A DNA stretch of 64,000 bases, taken from Ostreococcus lucimarinus. Taxonomy: Eukaryota. Both the position numbers and the translations under genes were made by a program. Location of the stretch: the NCBI GenBank assembly GCA_000092065.1, contig CP000582.1; one strand, 5' to 3'. Positions 6,112-62,500 of this stretch are shown piece by piece. Below the pieces are notes generated by a model. That model had not been told where the DNA came from. It saw nothing but the letters and a program-made list of their open reading frames with translations, and made no database searches. Within the stretch, counting starts at the first letter, position 1, and each line of letters starts with the position of its first letter.

Positions 6112-6239
6112 GGCGCGTTGGCGCCGCGCGTTCGCGGTCGCGACGGCGCGACGCGCGGCGTCGGCGACGATTCGCGCGCGCGATTGTGCGGCGCCGACGC
6201 GCGGCGTCGGGAATTCGCCAGAGCGCGACGCGTCGCGCG

Positions 6240-9143
6240 ATGGCGCGCGCGCGCGCGCGGTGGACGACGCGCGCGGCGCTCGCGCTGGCGCTGCTCGCGC
6301 TGTCGGCGCCGCGACGCGCGTCGAGCGCGGACGCGAGGGGGGAATCGACGAGACGCGTCGGAGATTCGCGCGCGCGCGGAAGACCGCTCGTCGTCGTGTC
6401 GCTGGACGGCGTCGTGCGCGCGCTGGACGCGGACACGGGCGATAACGTGTGGGCGTTCGACTCGGGAGGCGCGCTCGCGGGGGCGTCGTGGACGAGCGCG
6501 GGCGAGGACGCGCGGGCGCTGACGCCGCGGAGCGCGGCGAGCGGGACGCGAACGCGAAACGTGTTCCCGGGCGTCGACGGCGCGCTGTACGCGCATCACG
6601 TCGATCAGGACGCGAAACACGTCGTGCGGAGGTTGCCGGTGACGACGCGGGAGCTGGTGGAGGCGAGCCCGAGCGCGACGCGAGACGGGGCGCTGGTGGT
6701 GGGACGACGGTCGTCGACGATTTACGCGCTGCGCGCGAGCACGGGGGCGCTGGTGCGGAGCGTGGACGTCGATGGGACGATCACGAGCGTGATGGGAGGC
6801 GACGCGATGAACGGGGCGGACGAGGAGTTGATTTACGTCGGGCGCACGGAGTACGTGGTGCGGAGCGTGGACGCGGAGACGGGCGAGGAGCGATGGAACG
6901 TGACGCACGGCGAGTTGCGAAGTCTGAGTCGAGACTCGGACACGGGCGCGCTGCGCATAGGAACGGATCGCGCGAGCGATGCGGGATCGCTCGTGATCGG
7001 GCCAGGAAACGTGGTTCGAAGCGTGGACGAGGAAACGGGGGAGATTAAGTGGTCAAAGCGAATGGCGTCGTTGCCTTTGGGCGTGAGCGACGCGAGCGGG
7101 CGCGTCATCGTGGAGAACGCGGCGCAGATTCCAGCCGAAAGCGACGATAAAATTATTGTCGGCACGCACGAGAGAGGATTGTTCGCGCTTCCGTACACCG
7201 CCAGTGCGGGCGAAGGTTTACGAGACGGATCCGACAGCTCGAACGCCCTCGTCGCCGCGAGCGAAAGCGAAGACTTCGTTCGCGTCGATATAGGGAGCGA
7301 CGAGGACGATTGGTCGTGCATTCCTGAAGATTTGGTCAAGGCGACGCTCGATAAGACTTCGTCGAGGTTACCGGGTTCGAGAACGTCGCGACGAGCGCTC
7401 AACGTGCTGCTCGTCGGCGGCTTGTCCATCGTCTTCGTGTACTTGACGCAATTGAAGAGGCGAAATATAGAGGTCCACGACGTGAACGCACCGTCGAGCG
7501 TGGTGACAGGAGTAGAGGATGCAGAACAAGAGCATCAACGCACCGCTGCGGCGAAAAAACGAGCGAAAAAGCGGGCGAAACAAGCCGAAGCGCGAGCCGC
7601 TGAGGCGGAGCTCGCGGCGAAGATTCAGGAAGTCATGGAAGAAAAGACGCGCGAGGAAACGCGAGTCGGGCGCTTGCGCATTAAACCATCCGTGCTGGGA
7701 TACGGCTCGTGCGGTACGATCGTGTTCGAAGGCGAGCTGGATGGACGGCGCGTCGCGGTGAAGCGCTTGCTGGCGCAGTTTCACGAACTTGCGCGCAAGG
7801 AGCTTCAGGCTCTCATCGCCTCAGACGAGCACCCGAATATTTTGAGATGCTTTGCGCTCGAGGAAGACTCGAACTTCGTGTATATGGCGCTTGAGCTCTG
7901 CGCGTCGTCACTCGCTCGCGTCGTCGATCCTGTCGGGGCGGCGAACGAGAGCGAATCGTCCGCGGCGGAGACGAACGCGAAAGCGTTAAACATCAAATGC
8001 ATCGACGAGGCGACAAAGTATCCGACGGCAGAGTGCTTAAGAATTCTACACGACGTCGTCGCGGGTTTGGCCGCACTCCACGGGCAAGGCATCATTCATC
8101 GCGATTTGAAACCACAAAACGTCTTGATAACGTCGTCTGGACGAGGGAAAATCGCCGACATGGGACTCGCCAAGCGCGTGAACGTGTCCGAGGGAACGTC
8201 TTTTTACACGCACACGAACGGAAATTTGAACGTCAACGACGCGGCGGGCACGTCGGGTTGGCAAGCCCCCGAGCGATTGACGCAGGGGCGTCAATCGCGC
8301 TCTGTCGACGTCTTCAGTCTCGGTTGCTTGATGTACTACTGTCTCACGGGTGGTGCTCACCCGTTCGGTGAGAGGCTCCAGCGCGACGCCAATGTCGTCG
8401 CAAACAGCTACGACGTGTCCAAGCTGAAGTATTTCCCCGAAGCCGAGGCTTTGGTGAAGGCGTGCATCGACGCCGATCCATCCAAACGACCGTCGGCGAC
8501 GGAAATCTTGGCGCACCCGATGTGGTGGGACGCCGAGAAGAAGCTTCAGTTCCTTATCGATGCCTCGGACCGAGTCGAACTAGAAGATCGCATGAGCGAT
8601 CGATCGTTGCTGCGCGCGTTCGAGACGCGCGCGAAGTCCTCGATCGCGTGCGATGACTGGACCAAAAAGCTCGACGCCGCGTTGCTCGAAAATCTTGGGC
8701 GATACCGCGAGTACGACGGAACTTCTCTGCGCGACTTGCTTCGAGTCATACGCAACAAGGCGAATCACTACCGTGAGCTTCCTCCCAAGCTCCAACGCAC
8801 GCTTGGGTCGTATCCAGACGGCTTGTGGCGATACGTTTCCATCCGATTCCCCGCCCTGCTCCTCGGCGTGCGCGATTTCTTCGCCCCCTCGGCGGCGCGA
8901 GAACCCACCCTCGCGAAGTATTTCCTCAGCATCGATGCCGCGTCGAAAGCTTCATTCGCTCCACCGCTGGCGCGCGCCGAGTCCATCCCCGACAAGCCCT
9001 TAATAGCCCCCCAAGTCTTCCCGAGCCGTCCCGGCCGCGAGCCGTGCGAATTCTACATGAAAACTGGCCGCTGCAAGTTCGGCGCCACGTGCAAGTTCGA
9101 TCATCCTCAAGGCGTGCACTGGGACGTTCACAACGAACGATGA
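6240..9143 (+). CDS. IRE1: Serine/threonine kinase and endoribonuclease IRE1 (ER stress sensor), with a C-terminal CCCH zinc finger.
   Basis: Signal/TM segment (ALALALLALSAP) and a beta-propeller-like luminal domain, then a TM segment (LLVGGLSIVFVYL). The kinase carries GSCGTIVFEG, VAVKRLL, HRDLKPQNVLI and DMGLAK. The KEN/RNase domain carries WDAEKKLQFL...LRDLLRVIRNKANHYRELP. The C-terminus is CEFYMKTGRCKFGATCKFDH (C-x8-C-x5-C-x3-H). The ORF-track start at 6186 is GTG; the first ATG is 6240. Confidence 0.85.
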   Translation: MARARARWTTRAALALALLALSAPRRASSADARGESTRRVGDSRARGRPLVVVSLDGVVRALDADTGDNVWAFDSGGALAGASWTSAGEDARALTPRSAASGTRTRNVFPGVDGALYAHHVDQDAKHVVRRLPVTTRELVEASPSATRDGALVVGRRSSTIYALRASTGALVRSVDVDGTITSVMGGDAMNGADEELIYVGRTEYVVRSVDAETGEERWNVTHGELRSLSRDSDTGALRIGTDRASDAGSLVIGPGNVVRSVDEETGEIKWSKRMASLPLGVSDASGRVIVENAAQIPAESDDKIIVGTHERGLFALPYTASAGEGLRDGSDSSNALVAASESEDFVRVDIGSDEDDWSCIPEDLVKATLDKTSSRLPGSRTSRRALNVLLVGGLSIVFVYLTQLKRRNIEVHDVNAPSSVVTGVEDAEQEHQRTAAAKKRAKKRAKQAEARAAEAELAAKIQEVMEEKTREETRVGRLRIKPSVLGYGSCGTIVFEGELDGRRVAVKRLLAQFHELARKELQALIASDEHPNILRCFALEEDSNFVYMALELCASSLARVVDPVGAANESESSAAETNAKALNIKCIDEATKYPTAECLRILHDVVAGLAALHGQGIIHRDLKPQNVLITSSGRGKIADMGLAKRVNVSEGTSFYTHTNGNLNVNDAAGTSGWQAPERLTQGRQSRSVDVFSLGCLMYYCLTGGAHPFGERLQRDANVVANSYDVSKLKYFPEAEALVKACIDADPSKRPSATEILAHPMWWDAEKKLQFLIDASDRVELEDRMSDRSLLRAFETRAKSSIACDDWTKKLDAALLENLGRYREYDGTSLRDLLRVIRNKANHYRELPPKLQRTLGSYPDGLWRYVSIRFPALLLGVRDFFAPSAAREPTLAKYFLSIDAASKASFAPPLARAESIPDKPLIAPQVFPSRPGREPCEFYMKTGRCKFGATCKFDHPQGVHWDVHNER

Positions 9144-11687: not shown

Positions 11688-11991
11688 CGCCGCGCGCGCC
11701 CGCGCGCGTCGGCGAGCGCGGGCGCGCGCGCGCGGGCGCCGCGCGCCGGTCGCGACCGTGGCGACCGACCGCGTGTCCCGCGTGGGGTAAACAGTACCAC
11801 GTGATGTATGGTGACCGAATGTCCGAACATGTACACGTTCACACTGTCTGCGCATACAAAATAAATAAACCGACCCCCCCGATCCGCGCGTACGCGACGC
11901 CGATCGCGCGCCATGAAATCGAACGCGACCCGATCCGTGGACGCCCGTCGTCGCCCGCGCGCGCGTCCGCACACAAGCACGCACGCGCACG

Positions 11992-12047
11992 ATGTTCGCG
12001 ATGTCCACGATGCAAACCGCCGCGGCGCGCGCCGTTTTCGTCTCCAA
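11992..12047 (+). CDS. psaE: psaE exon 1 (photosystem I subunit IV precursor; transit-peptide start, MFAMSTMQTAAARAVFVS + 2 nt).
   Basis: ATG at 11992. The donor CAA|GTGCGTCGCG lies at 12048. The exon ends in phase 2 and joins exon 2 to give an AAG (K) codon. Confidence 0.55.
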
Positions 12048-12243
12048 GTGCGTCGCGATCTCGCGCGAGCGCGCGCGTCGGAAAACGCGACGCGACGCGA
12101 AGACCGCGCGCGATGGATCGTTCGCGTCGCGATCGCGGCGCGATGCGACGACGTTCGACGCGATGCCGCGCGCGCGGCGACGCGACGACGGCGAGCGGTG
12201 ACTGACGAACGCGCGCGATCATTTCGCTTCTTCGAACCCGCAG

Positions 12244-12298
12244 GCCGACGGCGACGAAGCGCCGCACGACGATCGTCCGCGCGGAGGGCGACGCCGCG
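12244..12298 (+). CDS. psaE: psaE exon 2 (transit peptide end, ...PTATKRRTTIVRAEGDAA).
   Basis: The acceptor cccgcag lies at 12241-12243, preceded by the branch site GTGACTGACGAAC at about 12198. The donor GCG|GTGCGTCTCGAG lies at 12299. The VRA|E stromal processing motif matches Chlamydomonas PsaE (VVRAEE). Confidence 0.7.
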
Positions 12299-12431
12299 GT
12301 GCGTCTCGAGATACGCGAGCGTATCGTGGATGCGACGCGTCGCGGTGATTCGACGTCTCGCGAGGCCGATCGCGACGCGCGCGACGAAGACGCGCGACTG
12401 ACGATGAAGAAAAATGTTTGGGACGACGCAG

Positions 12432-12482
12432 GAACCCGCGAAGGCGGCGCCGCCGGCGATCGGACCGCCGAGAGGCTCGAAG
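12432..12482 (+). CDS. psaE: psaE exon 3 (EPAKAAPPAIGPPRGSK).
   Basis: The acceptor gacgcag lies at 12429-12431 with the branch site GACTGACGATG at about 12397. The donor AAG|GTGCGCGCGG lies at 12483. The GP(K/P)RGS motif is conserved in PsaE. Confidence 0.75.
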
Positions 12483-12627
12483 GTGCGCGCGGGGAGACTT
12501 ATCGCGACGACGCGCGCGCGGTATCGCGGACGACGGCGACCGATCGGGACGGGAGAGGCGCGTTGGCGAGCGAAGGACTGTGACTGACGATGTGTGCGCG
12601 CGGTGTGCGGTTTGCGAATGGACGTAG

Positions 12628-12789
12628 GTTAAGATTTTGCGCCCGGAATCGTACTGGTTCAACGACTACGGCAAGGTCATCTCCGTCGATCAATCCGGCG
12701 TGCGGTACCCGGTTGTCGTTCGTTTCGAAAAGGTCAACTACGCGGGTGTTTCCACGAACAACTACGCGCTCGATGAGATCGAGTACTAA
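12628..12789 (+). CDS. psaE: psaE exon 4 ([53 protein letters not shown], then stop).
   Basis: Near-identical to the PsaE core, for example Chlamydomonas [51 protein letters not shown]. The acceptor acgtag lies at 12625-12627 with the branch site GACTGACGATG about 40 nt upstream. The six-frame track did not list this exon because it has no internal start codon. Confidence 0.85.
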
Positions 12790-13096: not shown

Positions 13097-15832
13097 ATGT
13101 CGCGCGCGTCGGCGAGCGAACGCGCGAGTCTTCTCGCGTCGTCGTCGACGTCGATCGACGTCGAGCGCGGGCGCGACGCACCGTCATCGTCGTCGGCGCG
13201 CGTGGGTGTTAACACCCACGATGACGCTCGAGCGCCGTCACCGTCGACGCGGACGCGTTCGCGGGCGTGCGCGGTCGCCGCAGCGTGCGTGATCGCGTGC
13301 GCGATCGCCGCGGCGTGCGCGGGCGACGCACGGGCGAGATCGCGCGCGCGGCTCGGGCTCGAGATCGGGCGCGAGTCCGACGCGAACGCGACGATGGAGG
13401 CGGGCCGAGAGACGGCGGCGATGGGAGCGTCGAAGCGCGACAACGTGGACGATAGGGCGATGCGGGATGAATTTTTAGAGTCGCAGGCGGCGAGCGTGAC
13501 GAAGGCGCACGAGGCGAAGGCGAAGGCGTTCTCGACGGAGCTGGCGAAGGAGTGGCGACGGTTCGAGGAGCGCTCGCGGCGAACCGAGGATTCGGACGGC
13601 GACGTCATATGGATGGTGCGAACGGCAGAGTACGCCAATGTAGCGATGGATAAGAGAGGGTGGTGGCGACCGCGGACGTTGACGCAGCGAGATAAAGGGG
13701 ATTGGATGATGAGTTCGGTGGGGGCGCGCACGGACCCAGCGGCGACGGCAGCCTTGAGCTTGCAAGAGCGCTTGGCGCACTCGCAAGCGCATCGTGAGGC
13801 GATGATTTTTAACTCGTGTCCGAGTTTAGTGTACTTGGGTGCGGAATACGCGAGTCATACGTGGCCTTCGACCGTGCGCCAGCTCGGTTTCGCGCACGGT
13901 TTGCGCGGGACGACGACCGGGACGATGGATACGCTCAAGAGCGTTCGCATGAACCCTAAGGGTCCTAACTTTGTTTTGGGTGCGAGCGACGGCCTGAGTT
14001 ACGAAGGTTTATCCGCGATGCTCGGCACGATGAGCGCTCGCGACAACGGACGTTTAGACGAATCCAAATCGCTCTTTCTCATCGCAGGCGTGCGCGACCC
14101 GCTCAAGCGAGCCATCGAGGCTTACATGCAATACGGCGTTGCTCGTCGAGGCTGGGAGCCGACGGTGGAGAGCTTTGAAAATTTCGTGTTCGGGCGCTAC
14201 GGGCGGCTGGCGCACGTGGGGAACATACAGTTTAAGATGCTCGCTCCGGAGGAGTTGGTGAAAAAGGCGCTCGAGCGTGAAGCTCTTCAAGCAAAAGCAC
14301 CTCCGATCAAGGATGCGGAGATCATGCGTGTATTGAACACGTATGATCTCGTCGTGACGCCAGAGCACGACCTTTTGGCCCGTCTGCTTGTGAAGCAGAT
14401 GCTGTACCGCGTCGTTTCCGTAAGACAAATTTTAACGCCACCAGATGTCGGATACGCGAGGCTCGATCGCTTCGGGTTTAAGAGGTACGACGTCGAGGAT
14501 AAGGAAAACGTTTTACCGAAACCTTTGTTGGAGTATGTCAACAGTCGGGCGTTCAAAGTGAGGTTCAACAGGCTTAACTTGCTGGATCAAAAGCTGTACG
14601 ACGCCGCAAACGCGCGGCTGCTAAGAATGTGGAAGGAGCATCACGTGGTCGAAAGTTACTTGGCGTGGCGAGAATCTGTGCACGATTACGTCATGCCGAA
14701 ATTGATGAACACTCAGAGCCTAAAGGCGGCGAGAGAGTTATCGCAAAGCAGCCCTCGAGTGGCAAAAGTGTGCCCGTCAGGGCACGAGGATGACTGCTCT
14801 ACCGTATTCGAAGAGCACGCTGACGAGTTCCTCGCCGAAGAGAAGCGCCGACACGCCAGCGAGCAGTGCATGTTTGAGAACTACGGTTGTTTCAGTCGTC
14901 AATTGGTAAATCTCGGGCTTTTGCACTACAAAAGGACTCGAACCGCCGAACTGGCGAGTTTTTTCAAACAGCAAGAGACGCCAGAGTCGTATGGTACCGC
15001 CAAGGCGGCCTCGTGCGCCGGGGTGGCAATGGTTTCGGAGATTCGATTTTGCGCCGATAACGCGACTTTAGGCGACGGTGTCGTCGGTAAAGCCATGACG
15101 GGCCTAGCGGATTCGATTTATCTTCTCTGTGCCCGACACGCATGCGAAAACTTGTGCGTGCCGAAGAGTTGGGAAACCAAGGTTCGCGTTGTCGACGGCG
15201 CCAAGATTGACCGATGCTTCGGTATACAAGCAACCGAGAACCATTTCCGCCGCGCCACGCTCTCGCATGGAGCGATCGTCGCACACGCCAGGCAGGAAAA
15301 GTTTCGGAACGTCGCGGTCGTGGAGGTAGACGTCAACTTTGTCGACCCGGATCCATCCAACTATCCCGACTACGACGCCGCGAAGTCGGTTCAGTCAATC
15401 GCAAAACACATCGATGGTAACACGGCCGCAGATTCTGACGATCCATTCACCATCATTCGTCTCGGCTATCGCGCGTGGGAGTTTGAGCGCGGCGTCGTGG
15501 CGTGCCCTCACGGCTGCGGTTGTCGCCGCGGCGCCGACGGCGCCGACGACTCCTACTGCGTCGTCACCCGAGCGCAGTGCGACCTCCGCGGCTCCCACGC
15601 CTACATTCTCTCCGGAGACTCCTTCAACCTCTTCCTCGAGCCCGTGCTGAGCAAAAAGCGCACGCAAACCAAGGTGATCGACTTCAACGTCTTTCAACGA
15701 TTTCCCCAGCAGCTCGTGCTCGAGCCCATGCTCGCCGCGCAAGCCGGTTACTCCAACGACGCCGACGTTATCGGCGTCGACCAGCAATTCCACGACGCTC
15801 GTCGCTTCGCGCAATCGTGCGTCGTTCGTTAG
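13097..15832 (+). CDS. Type II membrane protein with a sulfotransferase-like domain; the C-terminal half is unassigned.
   Basis: ATG at 13097. The N-terminal cytosolic tail is followed by a TM anchor, ACAVAAACVIACAIAAACAG. Sulfotransferase-like 5'-PSB and 3'-PB motifs are present (TTGTMDTL..., ...VRDPLKRAIEAY). Confidence 0.6.
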   Translation: MSRASASERASLLASSSTSIDVERGRDAPSSSSARVGVNTHDDARAPSPSTRTRSRACAVAAACVIACAIAAACAGDARARSRARLGLEIGRESDANATMEAGRETAAMGASKRDNVDDRAMRDEFLESQAASVTKAHEAKAKAFSTELAKEWRRFEERSRRTEDSDGDVIWMVRTAEYANVAMDKRGWWRPRTLTQRDKGDWMMSSVGARTDPAATAALSLQERLAHSQAHREAMIFNSCPSLVYLGAEYASHTWPSTVRQLGFAHGLRGTTTGTMDTLKSVRMNPKGPNFVLGASDGLSYEGLSAMLGTMSARDNGRLDESKSLFLIAGVRDPLKRAIEAYMQYGVARRGWEPTVESFENFVFGRYGRLAHVGNIQFKMLAPEELVKKALEREALQAKAPPIKDAEIMRVLNTYDLVVTPEHDLLARLLVKQMLYRVVSVRQILTPPDVGYARLDRFGFKRYDVEDKENVLPKPLLEYVNSRAFKVRFNRLNLLDQKLYDAANARLLRMWKEHHVVESYLAWRESVHDYVMPKLMNTQSLKAARELSQSSPRVAKVCPSGHEDDCSTVFEEHADEFLAEEKRRHASEQCMFENYGCFSRQLVNLGLLHYKRTRTAELASFFKQQETPESYGTAKAASCAGVAMVSEIRFCADNATLGDGVVGKAMTGLADSIYLLCARHACENLCVPKSWETKVRVVDGAKIDRCFGIQATENHFRRATLSHGAIVAHARQEKFRNVAVVEVDVNFVDPDPSNYPDYDAAKSVQSIAKHIDGNTAADSDDPFTIIRLGYRAWEFERGVVACPHGCGCRRGADGADDSYCVVTRAQCDLRGSHAYILSGDSFNLFLEPVLSKKRTQTKVIDFNVFQRFPQQLVLEPMLAAQAGYSNDADVIGVDQQFHDARRFAQSCVVR

Positions 15833-16165: not shown

Positions 16166-19100
16166 ATGCCGACGTTCCGGGACGACATGGCGGGGTCATC
16201 GCACGACACCGCGGCGATTGATTTCACGAAGACGCCGTTCGCGCCGGCGTCGACGCCGAGAAAGATTAGCGCGGTGCGGTTTTCGCTGATGAGCTCGAGC
16301 GAAATCGGACGCGCGGGGGTGTTTCACGTGTTCGAACGGAATTTGTATCAGATGCCGCAGCGAACGCCGATGCCGAACGGGATATTAGATCCGAGAATGG
16401 GGACGACGGATAAGCGCGGTGGGGAGTGCGCGACGTGTCGAGGGAACATGGTGGATTGCGCGGGGCACTTTGGGTACATCAAGCTGGAGCTGCCGGTGTT
16501 TCACATCGGATACTTTAAAAACATCATCAGCGTGTTGCAGTGCGTGTGCAAGAATTGCTCGCGGATTTTACTGAACGAGGATGATCAAGATATGTTTTTG
16601 AAGCGCTATCGGAATCCAAGACTTGAGATTACGCAGAGGCGTCTGCTGTACAAAAAGTTGACGGAAAAGTGCAAACGATGCCGAACGTGTCCGCATTGCG
16701 GAGATTACAACGGCGTGACCAAGCGTGCGGGGCAGACTTTGAAGATCGTTCACGAAAAGTATAGTAAAAACCCAGCGTTGTTGGAGGAGTTTATGAAGGA
16801 GTTTGAAACAGCTTTGAAGTACAACGAGCAGCTTCGAGCGTCACTGCCAAAGGTGCAAGACGATTTGAATCCCATTCGTGTGTTGGGCATATTACAGCGC
16901 GTCACTTCGGCCGATTGCGAATTACTAGACATCGCAGATCGACCGGAACACTTGCTCTTGACGCACCTGCCCGTTCCGCCGTGTTGCATCAGGCCTTCGG
17001 TGGAGATGGACGGCGTGTCAGGGTCAAACGAAGACGATATCACGATGAAGCTCATACAAATCATCGAAGTCAACAATGTTTTGCGGCAAGGCTTAGAGAA
17101 AGGGCTCGCTGTTAACAATATGATGGAGAATTGGGATTTTTTACAGATTCAATGCGCCATGTACATCAACAGCGAGCTTCCCGGTTTATCTCTGCAGTAC
17201 CAGGGCCCTGGTAAGCCGCTGCGCGGCTTTGTGCAAAGACTCAAGGGTAAGCAAGGGCGCTTCCGCGGTAACCTCAGCGGTAAGCGCGTAGACTTCAGTG
17301 CGCGCACTGTGATCTCACCAGATCCGAATCTTCGGATCGACGAGGTTGGTGTACCAATACATATAGCGAAGACAATGACATACCCAGAAGTCGTCAACAA
17401 ACACAACATGGTGATGCTGAGAGAGCGCGTGCGCAATGGTATGGCGAAGCATCCTGGAGCGAACTTTGTCAAGTTTGCGTCTGGTGGTATGCAGTACTTG
17501 AAGTACGGCGATCGTCGCAAGATTGCCAGCGAGTTGAAATTCGGAGACATTGTTGAGCGACATTTGCACGACGGCGACATTCTGTTGTTCAATCGTCAGC
17601 CGAGTTTACACAAGATGTCAATCATGGCGCACAAGGCACGTATCATGGAGTGCCGAACTCTACGTTTTAACGAGTGCGTGTGTACGCCGTACAACGCCGA
17701 TTTCGACGGTGACGAGATGAATATTCATTGCCCTCAAACGGAAGAAGCGCGCGCCGAAGCGATGCAACTTATGGGAGTGCAACACAACCTGTGCACACCG
17801 AAAAACGGCGAGATTCTCATCGCAGCGACGCAGGACTTCCTAACTGCAGCGTTTCTTCTCACCATTAAGGATGCGTTTTTTGATCGCTCTCAGTTTGGCT
17901 CGCTCGTCGCGTACATGGGTGATGCGCTCCTTTCCGTGGATCTTCCGACGCCAGCAATCTTGAAACCCATTGAGCTGTGGACTGGAAAGCAAGTGTTCAG
18001 CGTTCTCATTCGACCGAAAGCGTCCGATCACATATATGTTAATCTTGAAGTCGCTGAAAAGCTGTACAACAAGAAGGACAAAACAATGTGTCCCGACGAC
18101 GGGTACGTGTGCATTCAGAATAGTGAAATAATCTCAGGGCAACTCGGCAAGGCGACACTCGGTAGTGGAAATAAAAGTGGACTATTCTACGTGCTCAACA
18201 TAGAATACGGCGCCGAAGCCGCCGCAAATGCGATGAATAGACTCGCCAAGCTGAGCGCTCGATGGCTGGGTACGCGCGGGTTTAGCATTGGCATCGACGA
18301 CGTCTCACCGGCCGCGGAGTTGTCAGCCGAAAAGGGCCGACGTATCGAGGACGGCTACAGAACTTGCGACGAACGAATCGCTTCGTATGAGAAAGGTACT
18401 TTACCTCTTCAAGCGGGCTGCAACGCGGAGGAAACGTTGGAGGCTGAAGTTCTCGGGGTCTTGTCTGCGGTGCGCGAAGCCGCGGGGAACGCGTGTTTAA
18501 AGGCGCTGCCGCGTCGCAACGCACCACTTATCATGGCTCTTTGCGGCAGTAAGGGTAGCACGATCAACATTTCTCAGATGATCGCGTGTGTTGGTCAACA
18601 AGCTGTGGGAGGCTCGCGACCTCCTGACGGTTTCGCCGAGCGATCGCTCCCGCATTTCAGGCGCGGAGAAAAGACACCCGCCGCAAAGGGCTTTGTCGCC
18701 AACTCTTTCTTTTCTGGCATGCGACCGACGGAATTCTTCTTCCATACCATGGCTGGTCGTGAAGGTCTCGTCGATACTGCCGTAAAGACTGCAGAGACTG
18801 GATACATGTCTCGTCGTCTCATGAAGGCGCTAGAGGACCTATCGCTTCAGTACGACGGCACTGTGCGCAACTCGATGGGTGGCATTGTGCAGCTGCGCTA
18901 CGGCGACGACGGCATGGAACCGACTATGATGGAGAGTGAAGACGCCCAACCGATCGAGTTTAAGCGGTGTTTGATGAATGTGCGAGGTCTGAACTCGGCA
19001 CGAGGCGAACCGCCAGCGACTCGCTCGGCGTTAGATGCGGCGCTGGACCAGTTCAAGCGAAACAACAGAATTATCAATGTCGACGAAGAAGGCGAAAGCG

Positions 19101-20446
19101 CCGAGACGCGCGAACTCGTGTACAGCGCTGGTATCTCGCAATTATTCTACGAAAACATGAGAACATTCATCATCAACGAAGTGGAGTCGCCTTCGGATGG
19201 CGTATACATGTCGGATCGACAGATGAAGGCATTTTTGGACGCGTGCGCGCGAAAATACACTGAAAAACGAATTGAGCCCGGCACCGCAGTTGGCGCCATT
19301 GGCGCACAATCCATCGGCGAGCCAGGCACACAAATGACGCTGAAGACGTTCCATTTCGCCGGTGTGGCGTCGATGAACATCACCCTCGGCGTTCCTCGAA
19401 TTAAGGAAATCATCAACGCGTCCAAGAATATCAGTACGCCAATCATCACGGCGTCGCTCATGAGCGACAGGGACGTCAAGGCGGCGCGCGTGGTGAAGGG
19501 TAGAGTGGAGAAGACGACGTTGGGCGAAATCTGTTCCGAAATCAATATTGTCGTTCGTCCGCACGATCTTTACCTCGAGCTTATGTTAGATATGGAGGCG
19601 ATCAATCAACTTCAGTTGGACGTCACCATTCACTCCGTGCGCCTGGCTGTGCTCGGGGCGCCAAAGCTCAAGCTCAAGCCTCAACACGTGCTCATCGCCG
19701 GCGAGAATATCTTGCATGTCTTACCCTCGGAAGAAGCACTGATAGAAAAACGCGCGTTGTTCACTCTGCAGCACATGCGACTGGCCATTCCCGCCGTCAT
19801 CGTGCAAGGCATCCCATCCGTCGGTCGAGCCGTCATCAACGACAAGGGCGACGGAACGTACAACCTCATCGTGGAAGGCGTGAACTTGCAGTCCGTCATG
19901 GGTATCGAGGGCATCAAGGGAACAGAGACACGAACAAACCATGTCATGGAGTGTGAACGCACGCTAGGCATCGAAGCGGCGCGCGCGTGCATCATTGAAG
20001 AGATTGACAGCACGATGGGCGCTCACGGCATGTCAATCGACAACCGACACTCGATGTTGCTCGCCGACGTCATGACGTACAAGGGCGAGGTTCTCGGGAT
20101 CACGCGTTTCGGCATGGCAAAGATGAAAGACTCTGTACTCATGTTGGCTTCGTTCGAGAAAACTACGGATCATCTGTTCGACGCAGCGCTGCACGGGCGC
20201 ACGGATTACATCGACGGCGTCTCCGAGTGCATCATCATGGGCATTCCAATGCCCATCGGCACGGGGATGTTCCGCTTGCAGCACCGCGCGATGAAACTCG
20301 AAGTTGACATCAACTTGGTAGAAGAAGACGGAAGAGAAACGTTGATGACGACTGTCACCCCCGAACAACGCGAAGAATTGCCGAAAAGACCGCCCTTGCT
20401 CTTGCAAGGCGGATACTGCAAACCATGCAGACCTATCGAAGCTTAA
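16166..20446 (+). CDS. RPC1: DNA-directed RNA polymerase III largest subunit (RPC1 / POLR3A).
   Basis: 1426 aa with no CTD heptads. Conserved clamp and active-site regions are present, including NADFDGDEMNIH, the Pol III-specific ...RSLPHFRRGEKTPAAKGFVANSFFSGMRPTEFFFHTMAGREGLVDTAVKTAETGY, and the zinc ribbon CATCRGNMVDCAGHFG. Confidence 0.9.
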   Translation: MPTFRDDMAGSSHDTAAIDFTKTPFAPASTPRKISAVRFSLMSSSEIGRAGVFHVFERNLYQMPQRTPMPNGILDPRMGTTDKRGGECATCRGNMVDCAGHFGYIKLELPVFHIGYFKNIISVLQCVCKNCSRILLNEDDQDMFLKRYRNPRLEITQRRLLYKKLTEKCKRCRTCPHCGDYNGVTKRAGQTLKIVHEKYSKNPALLEEFMKEFETALKYNEQLRASLPKVQDDLNPIRVLGILQRVTSADCELLDIADRPEHLLLTHLPVPPCCIRPSVEMDGVSGSNEDDITMKLIQIIEVNNVLRQGLEKGLAVNNMMENWDFLQIQCAMYINSELPGLSLQYQGPGKPLRGFVQRLKGKQGRFRGNLSGKRVDFSARTVISPDPNLRIDEVGVPIHIAKTMTYPEVVNKHNMVMLRERVRNGMAKHPGANFVKFASGGMQYLKYGDRRKIASELKFGDIVERHLHDGDILLFNRQPSLHKMSIMAHKARIMECRTLRFNECVCTPYNADFDGDEMNIHCPQTEEARAEAMQLMGVQHNLCTPKNGEILIAATQDFLTAAFLLTIKDAFFDRSQFGSLVAYMGDALLSVDLPTPAILKPIELWTGKQVFSVLIRPKASDHIYVNLEVAEKLYNKKDKTMCPDDGYVCIQNSEIISGQLGKATLGSGNKSGLFYVLNIEYGAEAAANAMNRLAKLSARWLGTRGFSIGIDDVSPAAELSAEKGRRIEDGYRTCDERIASYEKGTLPLQAGCNAEETLEAEVLGVLSAVREAAGNACLKALPRRNAPLIMALCGSKGSTINISQMIACVGQQAVGGSRPPDGFAERSLPHFRRGEKTPAAKGFVANSFFSGMRPTEFFFHTMAGREGLVDTAVKTAETGYMSRRLMKALEDLSLQYDGTVRNSMGGIVQLRYGDDGMEPTMMESEDAQPIEFKRCLMNVRGLNSARGEPPATRSALDAALDQFKRNNRIINVDEEGESAETRELVYSAGISQLFYENMRTFIINEVESPSDGVYMSDRQMKAFLDACARKYTEKRIEPGTAVGAIGAQSIGEPGTQMTLKTFHFAGVASMNITLGVPRIKEIINASKNISTPIITASLMSDRDVKAARVVKGRVEKTTLGEICSEINIVVRPHDLYLELMLDMEAINQLQLDVTIHSVRLAVLGAPKLKLKPQHVLIAGENILHVLPSEEALIEKRALFTLQHMRLAIPAVIVQGIPSVGRAVINDKGDGTYNLIVEGVNLQSVMGIEGIKGTETRTNHVMECERTLGIEAARACIIEEIDSTMGAHGMSIDNRHSMLLADVMTYKGEVLGITRFGMAKMKDSVLMLASFEKTTDHLFDAALHGRTDYIDGVSECIIMGIPMPIGTGMFRLQHRAMKLEVDINLVEEDGRETLMTTVTPEQREELPKRPPLLLQGGYCKPCRPIEA

Positions 20447-24291: not shown

Positions 24292-24397
24292 GTGCGTGGG
24301 GTCGATCGCGGCGCGCGCGCGGGCGCGGACGCGGAGGCGGGGATGGGAGGACGGCGGGACTGACGACGACGACGCTTTATCCGTTCGCGCGCCGCAG

Positions 24398-26023: not shown

Positions 26024-26115
26024 CTGTCCGTTCGCGCGCGAGTCGACGTCGTCAGTCACTCGTCGCGCGCCGCGCGCCCCGCGTCCGCGCGTCGCTCGTC
26101 GCGCGCCGCGCGCAC

Positions 26116-26226
26116 CTTTTCCCGCTTGTCCTTTTTCGTCTTTTTCGCCTTCTTCGCGGTCGTCGTCGTCGCCTTGAGCGCCAACCGGCCGCGAACGACG
26201 TGGTCGTACGCGCCGTCCTTCGTCAT
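26116..26226 (-). CDS. FAM32A-like (DUF1754) protein exon 1 (MTKDGAYDHVVRGRLALKATTTTAKKAKKTKKDKREK).
   Basis: Matches the human FAM32A N-terminus (GPLKLKG + Lys-rich tract). The donor AAG|GTGCGCGCGG on the minus strand lies at 26115-26106. Confidence 0.7.
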
Positions 26227-26698
26227 CGCGCTCGCTCGCTCGCGGTCGATCGTGCGGCGCCGCGCGCGCTCGGCATCGCGTCGCGGAGTGTCGCGCGCGT
26301 CGCCCCGCGGTGTCTTTGTCAGCGCGAACCGCGATCGGCGACGCGATCGCGATACGCCGACGCGCGCGACGTCGCTCTCGACGCACGAACGCGCGGAAAC
26401 GGTCGATAAATATCGCGCGCGCGAGAATCGCGCGCGCGAGCGGACGTCGGCGACGCGCGAGAGGCGCGAGAGGCGTGAAACGCGCGGCGCGCGCGGAACG
26501 ATCTCCGCGCGCGCGTGGTGATTGCGAGCGCTGGACGCGCGCGCGAGCGCGCGAGGGCGTCGAGCGCGCGCTCGGTACGGACGGAAACGTTCGGTGGGTC
26601 GGTCGCGCGCGACGCGAGGGACGTAGGACGGCGCGAGGGCGACGCGAGGGCGCGCGAGGGAAAGGTTGGAGACCGAGGGTATCCTCGCGGCGCGCGCG

Positions 26699-30439: not shown

Positions 30440-30505
30440 CTGCGTCGCGTCGCGCGCGTCGTCAGTCTCGCGCCGCGCGATTCGGCGCGGTCGTTCGAGG
30501 CGCAC

Positions 30506-55340: not shown

Positions 55341-58300
55341 TCATGCGGCCGCACGGCGCGATCGTCGCGGCGGACTTGTCGGTGGCGTCGCAACCTTGGG
55401 TAAATCGGGCGCAACGTTTTCTTGCTCATCGGAAGTCTTGCTGTCTGTTCGGACAATTTCCGATGGAATTTCCTCGTCGTTGTCCACTGTTTGAGGTTTT
55501 TCCTCGCTAGGTTCTTCTTCCTCTTTCTTAATTTCTGCAACAACAGTCTCTTCTTTACCCTCAGCTCGCGCCGACACGTTGTATGCTGCCGCTCGTTCGA
55601 CGTGCGCGTCGTTAAGCCTAGTCTCGAAAGCCTCCACAAACTGTTTTGCTTCGGGCTTTGCCGCGCGCTTCTGCTTGTGACACATCGCGATGAAGCACGC
55701 ATGTACTTCGTGATCATACAAGGCAGCATCGTACTGCTTCCAACTCTCTGTGAACTTCTTGAAAGCACGCTCGCTGAGGTTGAGTTGCGAGATGCAAAAG
55801 GCGATATCGCGCGCAGGTTTCGGTGTTTCAGCCAAACACGCCTCGGCAAATCTCGCGCACATCTTTTCGCATATTGCTTCAGCCTGACGCTCCTTGTCAA
55901 TGAACCCGACGAGACGAGTCATGATGCGCTTGAAAGCGTCCGGAGAAATATCTTCGTCGGAGGACAGCCTAGACAATAAATCTGTCAGCAAGTTGTAAAT
56001 CGGATTACCGTGCTTCTGAGAGAGTTCGTGGAAGAACAGCTTTGCCACGCCGGCGACTCGGGGGTCGACATCCTCCAGACATCGAGCCATCTCGCTGATA
56101 TGACCCTTGACTTTCATCATATCGTTCAAAACCAAATGGGACAACATCGTGATGGCGTGTTGTCGAACGCTTGCGTCGGTGTCGTGCAACGAGTTGCCCC
56201 ATTCCTTGATACCGTACAAGTGTTCAGTCCACGGCTCGACGGCGTTGGGGAATCGGAACGCCAGATCACCAAGGGCGACAAGAAGCGCGGAGCGAGTACC
56301 CTTGTCGGACTCGACTTTGAGACGAGTAAAGATCAATTTGAGATGATCCTCGCAGAATTTGGCGTCCAAAACCATGAAGCGCGTAAGCGCGGCGAGCGCA
56401 GCGCCGCGCAAAAGTTCGGGCCCTTGCACCACTGCTGGGTGAGAGCAAAGCTGCACGACAAATGGAGCATATATGGCGACGAGCCCACGCGCAGCGCCCT
56501 TTTTCGTGGCGAGAAGCTCAGCTTCGGCCTTTTCTCGAGTGGCGTCTAACAAGAGATCCTCTGCGACGGCACCTTCGCCCATGGCGGCGGCGAGATCGTT
56601 GTCACCCGAGTCACCTTTTTCCTTTGCCTCGGCCGCCTCGCGGTCACGAACGACTCTGGCTTGACGAACGGAGCGCGCGAGCTTTTCGATGTGTACCAAG
56701 TGTTTCAGTGAAACCTCGCCGAGAACGAACAAGAACCGTGCCAACACAGCAGTAGGTATTTTGTCCATAGAGTTGCCATTGAACGTAGCAACGGCGAACG
56801 CCTTGATGACTTCCGAAGACGCATGCTCAGGGTCGGGATGGAGCGAATAGAGAGCCGAAATCGCTTGTTCGGCGGATGGAAACCACGCGCGACCCGCGAG
56901 CGGAGCGGCCGGATGAAGCACCTTGGCAAGCTCAGCGAATACCGGGTGGCTGAGCTCCAAAGGCTCGCCATCCTTTCCTCGGACCACCGTGAGCGCGCAG
57001 CACGCGGCTCGGCACAGTGTTGGAGATTTCTTTTCGCCCGATAGCGCAGCCTCGATCGCGGCGCACACAGTTCCGAGATGTCCCCGCACGATTTCAGGAC
57101 TCGTACGAGCGCACATCGTGAGTACATTAAGCGCCGCGGCCTTGCGGTTATTCGAACATTCATCACTCGATACATTTGACCACAAAGTCTTCATCACCGC
57201 GCCAGTCGGCGGCAATCGACCCGATAAGACGAGCGCCTTCAGGACATCTTCAAGCGACGCTAGTTCACCTAGTGCGGCTGTGGCAGCGAGTTCGCTCAAG
57301 CCCGCTGCTGCGAGCATCGGGCTCTCGGCGTTCGAAAGATACAACACATCCACAGCTTCGACAACGGCGTCTTTGATGGCTTGATCGCGAGAGAAGATGA
57401 GGCCGAGCAATCGTCGAACACCTTCGGTAGAACCATCGACATTAAATTGACGCATGCGAACGAGTAAGCCAATAGCTTCGGTGACGTCGGAGGCGACAGA
57501 GGAAGTGAGGAGATTGCTCAAGTTTGCCACCGTGCCAGAGAGTTGCACCGTGAACCCGAGGGCGGTTTTCAGCGCCGCAACCATGGTGCGAACTGCTTCG
57601 AGACCGCCATTGAGATGGATTGCGGCGTTCGCATCGCCTTCTTGTTGTTTCGGAGGTTCCTGCGATCCGTCCTCGGTGTTCGATTCTTTGCCTTCGGCGC
57701 TCTCCTCGGGCGTTTCTTCTTCGGGCGGAGTCATCGACGCGAGCTTGGCTTCGTAATCCTTCAACGATTCAGCAAACGTCGCGCTCGGAAGTTGCGGAGC
57801 GAAAGGGTTGAACCCCAAAAGCGATGCAAGTAGACCCATAGCCGCCTTGCGCACGAGTGCGCCCTTGTCGTGCAGTCGCCCGATTGCGAGGTCCGTGACG
57901 ACGAGCCAGTGCGACAACGGAATCGCCTTGGCTTCAGCCATGGTCGCCCACGTGTTCAATACTCGTGCTCGCGTAAACGCACTCGTATCGTGTACACGCT
58001 CGACGAGTAGATCTAAGAACCCTTGTTTCGTGCGTAGAAGTGGCGCAGTGCTGTTGTCGTGATGATCGCTCACCGCAACGACATCCTTCTGCGAAATCAA
58101 GAGGTGTCCCAATACAGAGACTATCGCAGAACGCAAAGAGTACGCTTCGCCATCCAAATGAGGCATGAGCACGGACATGTTCGTCATCGTCGTCTTTGGC
58201 ATACGTTCTGCGATTTCACTGAGGAAAGCACCGACACAACGCACGCCGACAGCGTCGCTGGCTTGCTGCAGCTTGTAATCATGAGGATCGACGCGCCCAA

Positions 58301-58965
58301 CCTCGCGAATAAGTGCCGCCGCGAGGTGCGCGTTTTCAAATCTATCAGCCGCCGCGCTCGCGAGTTCCGCGATTGGGCCGGACAAATGCTCGCACTTGTT
58401 CAGTAGATGAATCAACGCTGTGGTTACTTGCTCGAGCTGGCCCCACTTGAGCGCACAAGAGCCCATCATTTCAAACGCCGCGCGCTTCGTCACTTTGCTC
58501 TTCAACGCCGCGGGATTTTCGAGCAACATCGACCCGAGACGCACAAACAACCTCAAGAAGTCCTCCTCGGGCTGCTTCGGACGGAATACCTGCCACAAAT
58601 CGATGTCCAAGGCACCAGCCATGACGTGCACGATGCGCTCACGCTGTTCGTCCCACGCCCACTCCGCCAACTTTGCCTTATTCGTCTGCTTCTTCTTCCC
58701 CTTGGCGCCAGGCGCGGGCTTTTGCGCGCACGCCATCGCGGCGCACTCCTTCGATTCTTTTTCGCACACCTCGCACACGTGGAATATAAACGTTGCGTAC
58801 GCCTTCAACGCCTGTCGATACCCAAACATCGTCTCCGCGTGCGCCTCATCCGCGCTCGCGCCGCTCACCACCGCCGCCGTCACGCTCGCGCTCAACACGC
58901 TCAAATTCGAACACAACGCATCGATCAAGCGCATGCGTTCGATCGGCGTCAACTCGATGAAATCT
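55341..58965 (-). CDS. Condensin complex subunit 1 (CAP-D2/Cnd1 family), main exon.
   Basis: HEAT-repeat protein. The conserved Cnd1 C-domain is LVALGDLAFRFPNAVEPWTEHLYGIKEWGNSLHDTDASVRQHAITMLSHLVLNDMMKVKGHISEMARCLEDVDPRVAGVAKLFFHELSQKHGNPIYNLL (human NCAPD2: ...GDLAIRFPNLVDPWTPHLYARLRDPAQQVRKTAGLVMTHLILKDMVKVKGQVSEMA...). Confidence 0.85.
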
Positions 58966-59108
58966 CTGCGTTCGCGCACCATCGTCAGTCTCCGACCGCG
59001 CCCTCATCGTTTCGTCGCGCGCTCGCGCGGGCGCGCTTCGCTCGCCCCGGAATCAAAGTTCGTTGAAAACGGCCCACGCGTCGCATCGTATTCCTTCGCT
59101 CCGCGCAC

Positions 59109-59371
59109 CTGCACAGCGCGTACGCCCCCCCGAACGCGTTCAAATCGTTCACCAACGTCTCGGCTTCGCCATCGCACAGGATGCGGACGACGTCATCGAC
59201 CGCGTCGGCGCGTTCGGACGGATCGCACGACGCGACGTCGAGGCTGGCGTCGCGCGCGATGACGATGCGTCGTCGTCCGTCGCGCGCGCGGGCGTCGTCG
59301 TCGTCGGCGTCGACGCAGAGGTCGGCGAAGGCGTCGGGAACGACGAATTCTCGCGCGAGGTCGAGGGCCAT
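59109..59371 (-). CDS. Condensin subunit 1, putative 5' exon (MALDLAREFVVPDAFADLCVDADDDD...LVNDLNAFGGAYALC + 2 nt).
   Basis: The donor CAG|GTGCGCGGAG lies at 59108. The 143-nt intron 58966..59108 ends with GAGACTGACGATGGTGCGCGAACGCAG. The ORF-track ATG (58982) lies inside that branch-site/acceptor sequence. The splice restores frame into DFIELTPIERMRLIDAL and adds an N-terminal region (FxxP...L) comparable to the CAP-D2 N-terminus. Confidence 0.55.
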
Positions 59372-59507
59372 CGCGGCGCGGGGACGCGCGTGGGTGTGAG
59401 GGAGGTGGCGGGCGAGCGAGCTTTTGGTTCCCCCGCCGCGCGCGCGAGGGCGAAGGCGCGAGGGGTGATTGCGGATGAATTCAATTAAAGATTGAGACCG
59501 CGCGCGT

Positions 59508-62500
59508 CTATGCGACGTCGCTCGTGTCGGATGGCGCGACGTCGACTTGGACGTCGACGCCTTCGTCGGGCGCTTCGATGACGGGCGCTTCGATGACGGG
59601 CGCTTGGACGTCGACGTCGACGACGTCGACGGCTTCGACGAGGCTCGTATCGATTTCTTGACGGTTGCCGCCGCCGAAAAGACCACCAAAGAAGCCTGGT
59701 TTCTTCGTACGCTTTTTCGCTTGCTTTTGTGCGCGCTTTTCGAGTGTTTTTGACTTCTTTTCTGCCAAAATCTTGAGATTGTCGTGCGCGGCTTGCGCGC
59801 ACTCCTGACAGCGAACGCTGAAGCCACTTTCGGCGATGCTCTGAGACGCGCGGACGCACCAGTCAACGAAATCGGTCACTTCGCTCTGTAAATGTTGTTC
59901 AAGTGACGTGTCTTCTTCGTCCGATCGAATAGACTTGATTATACGCTCCGTCATCGTCTCGAGAACCTGCATGAACTTGACGTCGCCAAAGTTTTTAAAT
60001 AGGGGCTTCCATTCCACGGCGCGCAGCACCACGCAGTTTTGTAAGTAGGTGTCATGATTTTTCAGAGCATCGATGGTTTCGTCGAGCAAAAGCCTGTTCG
60101 CTTCGACATTATCACCAACGAGAGACTCGCTTTCTGGATGTCTGAAGAGCTCGATGCATGCGTCCCGCCAAGTTTCGTGCTTGACGATGATGTCGTCGAA
60201 GGCGTTCAAGACGACGAGCACCCTGCCGACGTCGTCAACAGAAACTACCTGCGCGAGTTGAATAGTGAAGGTATCGGCCTGGGTGCAGAGAATTGATGCG
60301 TTCAGTTCATCCGTGCCGAAGTGTTCGGGAAGCGTTCTTTGCTCATCTTCGAGAGCCACTGCCTCTTGACCTAAAGAGATGAGTTCCGTTACTCGCTCAC
60401 CGCGAGCGTACTCCAACATATCGTCATCCAACTGCTTAGCAGCGCGATCGAATGCATGAATTCGCAGCAGTAAGTGTAAAGCGCCGGCGGTTGACTCGTT
60501 TGCATTCGTCCGGCGTACAAACTCTACCTCGGCGGCTTCAATCAAAGTCGTCAGTAAGTTGGCGGCGCTTTCAATTTGTTGTTCAACGTCGCGGTCCGCC
60601 GGCACAGGTTGAATGGTACACACGTTGACGATGTGCGCCACCTCATTCGCGATTTCCAGAAGTGCACGAATTTGTGCGGGATCTTCGTCACCCTTGTCCT
60701 TCATGTGTTGAACTCTCCGTAGCATGGCCTCACGTGTAGCCTCGAGCCGCGCGCGAACTTTGCGTTTGGATACGGCGACTTGAGCTCTCAACGCGTAGAT
60801 GCTAACGATCTTTCCAGCCTTCGCGAGATCGATAAATTCTCGATGGACAGAATTTGCGCTCTCCTCAGGTTCTTTCTCAAAATTCAGCTTTTTCGTGACC
60901 TTCTTGCTCACTGAAAGCCTTTCTGATACAATCATACCAACGCGCACCATCAACAGAGCGCATATGATGCCCATCAGAAATGCTGTGGACAGGCCCGTCA
61001 ACGAGCTGTCTGTCGCGAATATCATACCGAGGAGGGGAATGAGACCTTGCAAAAAACCAGCGGTCGACTCAGTCTTATTGAGCGCATTGTGGATTTTCTT
61101 TTGAGCAAAACCGAGGGTGATAATACGCCATGGCTGGCAAATCAAAACGAACAAAGCGGATATCCAGTGCACCGCCACGAGGCCGTAAATACTGATGCCC
61201 TCGGCGATGTTTGGAGAACCCGCGAGAATCACTCCAAGCTTTTGAATCATTTCAATTGCGAGGTAATTCAATGCCAGACGATCGAGCCAAGCCATTTTCG
61301 AGGCGCGCTCTCGAGCTTTCTGGGTCAACGTTCTTTTCAATGGTTTCTTTTTCATCGAAAGTTCCGGAAGGCGTTCGCGACGACTCTTCTGATTCTTTAG
61401 ACTCTTCGCTTTCTCGAGGATTCGACCGAAGAAGGATGGTTTTTCCGTCGCTTGACCGCTTTGTTCCTCGAATAACTCATCGTCGACTATGGCGGCGAGC
61501 TCTTCGGTTTCCGAGTCGAGCTTGAAAGTCGACGTTCGTTCAAATGTGGGCTTACGAAGACTGACACTTTGGGACAAAGATTTATCAATTTCGACTCTCG
61601 CCAAAGTTGAAGTTCGTTGAAGCGTCGGTTTTCGCTCAGCCCCGCTTGGGGTAGGCGAGTGTGAATCGCCGTCTTGCGCAAGAGTCGTAGACCGCGATAG
61701 CACTGGTGTGCGTATAGTCGCTTGTCGCGAGACGTTCCTCACAATCTCCGAGATTTCCAACTTATCAGATTCCGTCAACTCAGTGCGTCTGTAGATATCG
61801 TATAGGGCACCCCAGCTATCGAGGGTTCGCGCATCGTCCAATTTACCATCGATTCGAATACGACGAACTTTGTTGATAACGAAAAGTGGTAGCCCCACAC
61901 CGATGGCGAGTATGATCCCGCATGCCGCAGATGTCGCGAGAATATGCTCTGGTGAATCGCAATCGACGTCAACGTCGTAGACCAACACTCTGGCTTCGCT
62001 CGAGCCGTACTTTATGCAATCAAACGCCTGGAGACACAGGCGGACAATCGGTAAATACAGAATTGTCAAACAGAGCGAGCCAAATACTCGAAGCGTCGCC
62101 CTTAGCTTGTATTGCCGCTGCAATTCTTTCACCACTCGATCACCGCTCTCAGACGCGTATGTTCGACGCTCCTTCGAGCTAAAGATGCCAGGCCGAGCGA
62201 TCCAGAACATCGTCTTTTCTCCGTCGTGAGCGCTGCGAATTGCCAAAACAGTGTGTTCGTAACAGTATGCAGCGTAGCGATCGCGAAGATAAAACACCAC
62301 AGCTAAGCCGCATGGAATTATGAGCGCACCCGACCAAAAGAGAGTGGGCCATTTGATGTTCGCACCTGCGCACTCCGGAGCCAAAAACTCGATGTTGAAG
62401 TTGAAAGCCTTCAGCCAATCCGCAAAGTTCAGAACCGGGAGAGGCCATTTAATTTCCACACTAAAGGAGATGGAAAAGAATTGCAAAGTCTCAACCACTT

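Follow-up and report, generated by a model that had tools for sequence, protein, structure and literature searches.

Organization of the psaE locus

The stretch of Ostreococcus lucimarinus DNA analyzed here (64,000 nucleotides; the window) carries a psaE gene on the plus strand at positions 11992 to 12789, divided into four exons. Exon 1 (11992 to 12047; 56 nt) provides the start codon, the codons for residues 1 to 18 of the putative transit peptide, and 2 nt of codon 19, and it ends in phase 2. It is followed by intron 1 (12048 to 12243; 196 nt; phase 2) and by exon 2 (12244 to 12298; 55 nt), which encodes the end of the putative transit peptide (…KRRTTIVRA) and then the predicted start of the mature protein (EGDAA), with Ala32 encoded at 12281 to 12283. 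Intron 2 (12299 to 12431; 133 nt; phase 0) separates exon 2 from exon 3 (12432 to 12482; 51 nt), in which the N-terminal arm of the mature protein, EPAKAAPPAIGPPRGSK, is encoded. Intron 3 (12483 to 12627; 145 nt; phase 0) precedes exon 4 (12628 to 12789; 162 nt), which contains the codons for the PsaE core (VKILRPES…ALDEIEY) and ends with the stop codon TAA (12787 to 12789).

The spliced coding sequence is 324 nt long, with a frame that is open from the ATG at 11992 to the stop codon, and its product has 107 amino acids. No in-frame ATG is present in exon 4. At the beginning of the gene, three in-frame ATGs are located within 21 nt (11992, 12001, and 12010, corresponding to M1, M4, and M7), and out-of-frame ATGs lie upstream of the gene at 11804 to 11829 and at 11913. 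In an exhaustive search, only one ATG-to-stop chain of exons joined across GT/GC-AG introns encoded the annotated O. lucimarinus product exactly. It had the coordinates proposed in an earlier sequence-only reading of the same DNA, in which a PsaE core lacking a start codon of its own in the last 162 nt was joined to three short upstream exons, one of them encoding a GPPRGSK motif, to give a 107-amino-acid protein. The reading of this locus as a four-exon nuclear psaE gene is correct to the base: all exon and intron lengths agree, the core is confirmed by translation and by its Pfam match, the GPPRGSK motif is found in exon 3, and the protein obtained after splicing matches the public PsaE entry for O. 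lucimarinus exactly. The complete 798-bp span was also found, identical, in two independent Logan assemblies (SRR1179203 and SRR23274481).

Upstream of psaE, an intergenic region of ~300 bp (11688 to 11991) separates the gene from a divergently oriented ARMT1-like gene on the minus strand, the start codon of which is at 11687. Judging from this gene layout, the region presumably contains a bidirectional promoter and the psaE 5' untranslated region. A search of the window with the Rfam families and a tRNA scan identified no Rfam family and no tRNA.

Identity of the gene product

The product is 100% identical over its full length to the O. lucimarinus CCE9901 protein XP_001416091.1 (ABO94383.1; UniProt A4RTE0; UniRef100_A4RTE0), annotated as "Photosystem I reaction center subunit IV." Because this top match covers 100% of the query at 100% identity, the window is nuclear DNA of O. 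lucimarinus and the annotation already assigns this product to the gene; it is an ordinary, known gene, listed publicly ever since the genome was described. There is no detectable difference from the annotated PsaE, the agreement of the exon coordinates being judged from the product.

Residues 51 to 106 match positions 3 to 58 of the 60 positions in the Pfam profile PF02427 (PSI_PsaE) with 112.5 bits (E = 7.5e-33; the curated cutoff is 27 bits). In addition, 87 distinct PDB chains match the product, all of which are named PsaE or subunit IV, and the closest solved structure is chain E of O. tauri photosystem I (PSI) (7YCA_E; E = 7e-46). The gene also has the setting of a nuclear gene, with three GT-AG introns and with neighbors that include an IRE1-like kinase/RNase and an RNA polymerase largest subunit. 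The protein is a full member of the PsaE family, and the introns conform to the canonical type already described for Ostreococcus, with no departure from the published picture.

Open reading frames called across the locus

The sequence-only reading described the gene as hidden. This holds for naive open reading frame (ORF) calling, which misses psaE, but not for the reference annotation, which has it. As that reading also noted, the short exons are invisible to six-frame ORF calling: the only ORF listed over the core is a 50-amino-acid ORF starting with TTG (12637 to 12789). Two further listed ORFs are spurious, one of 69 amino acids running from exon 1 into intron 1 and the other of 94 amino acids covering intron 2, exon 3, and intron 3. 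The same 69- and 94-amino-acid junk ORFs are reported by prokaryote-style calls on two Logan contigs of the same DNA (window positions 11992 to 12583), in which PsaE is missed. These calls are a concrete case of database pollution arising from ORF calling on eukaryotic DNA.

Splice signals of the psaE introns

The extended donor sites of introns 1, 2, and 3 are GTGCGTC, GTGCGTC, and GTGCGCG, and the acceptors are CGCAG, CGCAG, and CGTAG, respectively; donors and acceptors alike are of the canonical Ostreococcus form. The motif ACTGACGA, within GACTGACG, is present once per intron, at 12200 to 12207, 12396 to 12403, and 12582 to 12589. The putative branch adenosines (12205, 12401, and 12587) are located 38, 30, and 40 nt, respectively, from the 3' ends of the introns. 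The GTGCG(T/C) donors, the single branch site in each intron, and the CAG/TAG acceptors that had been read from the DNA were therefore all recovered.

These motifs are the published signature of introns confirmed by expressed sequence tags (ESTs) in this species. Among 560 EST-confirmed O. lucimarinus introns analyzed by Irimia and Roy in 2008 (PMC2483917), those outside the atypical part of chromosome 2 have the 5' consensus GTGCGTG and tend to end in CGCAG; 87% of them contain ACTGAC and 66.5% contain GACTGACG (PMC2483917). The distance from the branch site to the AG in these introns is constrained, with a broad peak at 20 to 35 bp (PMC2483917), and two of the psaE introns are at or just beyond the upper edge of this peak.

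A loose donor/branch/acceptor pattern occurred 8 times in the window compared with 4.9 ± 3.0 times in sequences simulated with a Markov model (~4.9 per 128 kb), so that its window-wide enrichment is not significant. The weight of the argument therefore lies in local clustering and frame restoration and not in window-wide counts: three of the matches follow one another in order along 800 nt of a single strand, and with these removed the PsaE frame is restored. The combination of signals and frame restoration is far beyond chance.

We also considered whether these could be introner-like repeated introns of the kind present in Micromonas. This was rejected, as BLASTN searches with the three introns within the 64-kb window returned only CG-rich matches of at most 27 nt, and the three introns are not alike beyond their splice signals.

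Some other matches to the composite Ostreococcus intron signature were located at 24292 to 24397 (plus strand), 30440 to 30505 (minus strand), and 26024 to 26386 (minus strand), and these may mark introns. A GTGCGY…ACTGAC…YAG match at 58966 to 59108 (minus strand) falls between the ORFs at 58985 to 59866 and 55341 to 58982, both on the minus strand. By coordinate arithmetic, its removal joins the two ORFs in frame, in phase 2, and it probably represents a further genuine intron, within a single long gene.

Gene neighborhood and synteny

The gene order around psaE is common to O. lucimarinus and O. tauri: IRE1-like gene, ParA-like ATPase gene, ARMT1-like gene (minus strand), psaE (plus strand), a gene for a protein of ~900 amino acids, and the gene for an RNA polymerase largest subunit. 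The ARMT1-like gene and psaE also form a pair in Bathycoccus. In O. tauri, the spacer between these two genes is 278 bp long and the layout is likewise divergent.

Several of the neighboring ORFs were characterized in their own right. (i) The IRE1-like protein (6186 to 9143, plus strand) contains a PQQ beta-propeller, a protein kinase domain, and an RNase 2-5A domain, followed by a C-terminal CCCH zinc finger; this architecture, including the CCCH finger, was also called in O. tauri and Micromonas commoda, beside the psaE neighborhood. (ii) The ORF directly 3' of psaE (13097 to 15832, plus strand) is intronless, encodes 911 amino acids with no Pfam domain, and has a counterpart of 903 amino acids in the same syntenic place in O. 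tauri. (iii) The RNA polymerase largest subunit (16166 to 20446, plus strand; 1,426 amino acids) has Rpb1 domains 1 to 5 only, with neither domains 6 and 7 nor a heptad-repeat tail, and by this domain content it looks like a polymerase III (or polymerase I) subunit rather than a polymerase II subunit. (iv) A 1,493-amino-acid ORF of DUF285 repeats (59508 to 63989, minus strand; Pfam E = 2.7e-108, four stretches) lies in a stretch with ~50% GC, compared with 60% for the whole window, which ends inside this low-GC part.

Conservation of psaE among the Mamiellales

PsaE of O. tauri (101 amino acids; PMC10097422) is 73% identical overall to the O. lucimarinus protein, and the core is nearly identical. 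The O. tauri gene consists of four exons of 44, 55, 45, and 162 nt; the three introns between them fall on the same columns of the alignment as those of O. lucimarinus and agree with them in phase. Relative to O. lucimarinus, O. tauri has 12 nt fewer in exon 1 and 6 nt fewer in exon 3. A global DNA alignment of the two genes gives 92% identity in exon 4 and 63% to 69% in the introns. The similarity between the introns of the two species is weak (z = 2 to 4.7) and is mostly confined to the 5' end and the branch site. In intron 1, the first ~50 nt (12048 to 12100) can be aligned nearly base for base with O. tauri, while the remainder has diverged (z = 4.1 for the whole intron against shuffled sequences).

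The differences in exon 4 fall mostly on third codon positions. At positions 1, 2, and 3, respectively, there are 2, 1, and 10 differences from O. tauri; 3, 0, and 24 from Bathycoccus; 3, 2, and 21 from Micromonas pusilla; and 1, 0, and 21 from M. commoda, with 0 to 2 amino acid changes against these four relatives. This pattern shows psaE to be under purifying selection.

It is extremely improbable that the locus is a silent or decaying duplicate, a pseudogene, with the working psaE gene elsewhere in the genome. The frame is intact and the splice signals are all consensus, the substitutions in exon 4 are strongly biased to third positions and change only 0 to 2 amino acids, and in both O. tauri and Bathycoccus the gene has the orthologous syntenic position. 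The best 120 of 2,601 protein matches include a single PsaE from O. lucimarinus. Within the 64-kb window there is likewise one psaE locus: TBLASTN searches with green-algal PsaE sequences gave a strong match only at 12628 to 12786 (Mesostigma, E = 1.8e-27; Bathycoccus, E = 9e-33), accompanied by weak matches to exon 3 (Bathycoccus, E = 0.002; Mesostigma, E = 0.07), and no second locus was found in the window with the Mesostigma, Bathycoccus, or other PsaE queries.

In Bathycoccus prasinos, M. pusilla, and M. commoda, the core is identical at the protein level, and the first two introns are in the same general regions and in phases 2 and 0. At the position of intron 3 (GSK/VKIL), an intron is present in O. 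tauri and M. commoda but not in Bathycoccus or M. pusilla, and M. commoda has an additional intron at VDQ/SGV. As Bathycoccus and M. pusilla encode GSKVKIL uninterrupted, splicing of the window sequence recreates a sequence that is contiguous elsewhere. Within the Mamiellales, this small gene shows intron turnover, by gain or loss. Unlike the strict GTGCGT donors of Ostreococcus, the donors in the Bathycoccus gene are GTAAAT and GTACGG; its introns have ~40% GC, and the first of them contains no CTGAC. The spliced M. commoda psaE coding sequence was found exactly in an intronless Logan contig, which is presumably RNA derived.

The O. tauri psaE gene (strain RCC4221, CAID01000002.2; strain RCC1115, KZ155839.1) is apparently located on chromosome 2, which carries the candidate mating-type region. 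The locus should be outside the divergent mating-type region, since it is 99.6% identical between RCC4221 and RCC1115, which are of opposite mating types.

Protein and transcript evidence

Mass spectrometry of the purified O. tauri PSI-LHCI-Lhcp supercomplex has identified the PsaE peptides AEGEAAKPAAKPQVGPPR (residues 28 to 45) and AEGEAAKPAAKPQVGPPRGTMVK (residues 28 to 50) (PMC10097422). Peptides of O. tauri PsaE cross both the exon 2/3 junction (A33/K34) and the exon 3/4 junction (M48/V49) (PMC10097422, supplementary file 1). The peptide coverage extends from residue 28 to the C-terminal …DEVEY, with none detected upstream of residue 28, and the cryo-electron microscopy (cryo-EM) model of O. 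tauri PSI traces 62 PsaE residues (PMC10097422). Junction 1 is in the poorly conserved transit-peptide region, and the evidence for it consists of the splice signals, the frame, and the O. tauri parallel.

Among the metagenome and metatranscriptome contigs scanned, there was no match to the exact 24-mer of the exon 3/4 junction or to a degenerate back-translation of EGDAAEPAKAAPPAIGPP, which spans junction 2/3, and the exact 107-amino-acid product was absent from the contig index. In the supplements of the O. lucimarinus EST paper (PMC2367439), the terms "psaE," "subunit IV," and "reaction center" are absent and "photosystem" occurs seven times in one file. We infer splicing in O. lucimarinus itself from the annotation, the splice signals, the conservation, and the O. 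tauri protein data, and we infer expression likewise.

Alternatively, exon 4 alone might be genuine PsaE coding sequence, in which case the three micro-exons before it would have been assembled wrongly and other splicing or other upstream exons would be used in vivo. Exons 1 to 3 do encode low-complexity, poorly conserved sequence, with exon 1 only 46% identical to that of O. tauri at the DNA level, and the junction scans of metagenomes and metatranscriptomes yielded no O. lucimarinus transcript. However, every intron has a consensus donor and exactly one GACTGACG, no other canonical exon chain encodes the annotated product, and the O. tauri gene is split at the same three points in matching phases, with peptides of its product crossing junctions 2 and 3. 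Splicing at junction 3, moreover, restores GPPRGSK/VKILRPES, which is encoded by a single exon in Bathycoccus and M. pusilla. Misassembly of the upstream exons is accordingly very unlikely, and the four-exon structure is retained.

Start codon and putative transit peptide

Residues 1 to 32 include no Asp or Glu, 6 Lys or Arg, 8 Ser or Thr, and 7 Ala, and by this composition the N-terminal extension looks like a transit peptide. The sequence-only reading had placed a VRA/E processing motif in it (the slash marks the cut). The sequence VRAE is indeed present in exon 2, but a cut at this point is not supported by the O. tauri peptides.

In O. tauri, the motif is TRA/E where O. lucimarinus has VRA/E, and the PSI peptides (AEGEAAK…) repeatedly begin at Ala28, the Ala of TRA/E. 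In O. tauri, then, this Ala is retained in at least some of the mature PsaE. The homologous candidate sites in O. lucimarinus are IVR/AEGD versus IVRA/EGD. On this evidence, PsaE is probably cut at R/A, which would give an N-terminal peptide of tryptic appearance, or further upstream, and not at VRA/E.

The VRA/E proposal itself rests on analogy with Chlamydomonas reinhardtii, in which the nuclear-encoded PsaE (P30; PDB 7DZ7_E and 6JO5_E) is made as a precursor whose short, basic transit peptide ends in …VVRA and is followed by acidic residues, and whose core is conserved. The 73-residue Chlamydomonas chain 6JO5_E starts right after VRA, at an offset of 24 residues from the 97-residue full-length chain. 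By comparison, the cut in Ostreococcus PsaE may lie one residue closer to the N terminus than that in Chlamydomonas (VRA/EE).

We regard it as an even question whether the same gene gives a precursor that is shorter, starting at 12001 or 12010, and/or is cut at IVR/AEGD or further upstream. The three closely spaced in-frame ATGs would allow a later start; the O. tauri protein has 6 residues fewer, and Met1 of Chlamydomonas aligns with Met7 of O. lucimarinus. As for the cut, peptides starting at Ala28 would be impossible if all of the O. tauri protein were cut after that Ala. On the other hand, scanning ribosomes normally use the first AUG, the public gene model starts at 11992, and Chlamydomonas chain 6JO5_E begins directly after VRA. 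A peptide starting after Arg is also expected from trypsin acting on a longer mature form, and the mass spectrometry data therefore set only an upper bound for the position of the N terminus. The gene model starting at 11992 and its 107-residue precursor are used below.

Discussion

The locus is almost certainly the single-copy nuclear psaE gene of O. lucimarinus CCE9901, or of a sequence-identical strain, which has three introns and encodes a PsaE precursor with a putative chloroplast transit peptide. The pre-mRNA would lose three canonical U2-type introns by means of the 5' GTGCGY sites, the branch motif GACTGACG 30 to 40 nt from the 3' end, and the YAG acceptors. Translation in the cytosol would then yield the 107-amino-acid precursor, in which a basic, hydroxylated transit peptide of ~31 to 32 residues devoid of acidic residues would direct import into the chloroplast before being removed. 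The predicted mature PsaE of ~75 to 76 residues (~8.3 kDa) would fold into a small beta-barrel and, by analogy with the family and with O. tauri, would be located on the stromal face of PSI beside PsaC and PsaD.

PsaE in other organisms helps in ferredoxin docking. The O. lucimarinus protein would, by analogy, have the same role. Membership in PSI has been physically seen, by mass spectrometry and cryo-EM, for the O. tauri orthologue, and the O. lucimarinus PsaE is expected to be a PSI subunit on the strength of this relationship.

The psaE coding sequence of 324 nt is interrupted by three introns, all with nearly perfect splice signals, in a stretch that is otherwise highly compacted and almost intron free, the large flanking ORFs (911 to 1,829 amino acids) being single uninterrupted frames. 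An intron-rich psaE gene amid uninterrupted ORFs fits the observation of Lanier et al. in 2008 that highly expressed O. lucimarinus genes have more introns (PMC2367439). Following the proposal made by those authors (PMC2367439), the three introns could conceivably have been kept by selection, with splicing boosting the expression or export of a very abundant mRNA, an explanation that we put forward tentatively and hold to be rather doubtful.

The biological weight of the finding is small. As a nuclear gene of photosystem I, psaE is textbook knowledge. For picoeukaryote DNA in general, ORF-only or prokaryote-style calling misses genes with short exons and reports junk ORFs across introns, and the strict GTGCGY…GACTGACG…YAG signature can be used to search such sequence for more split genes.
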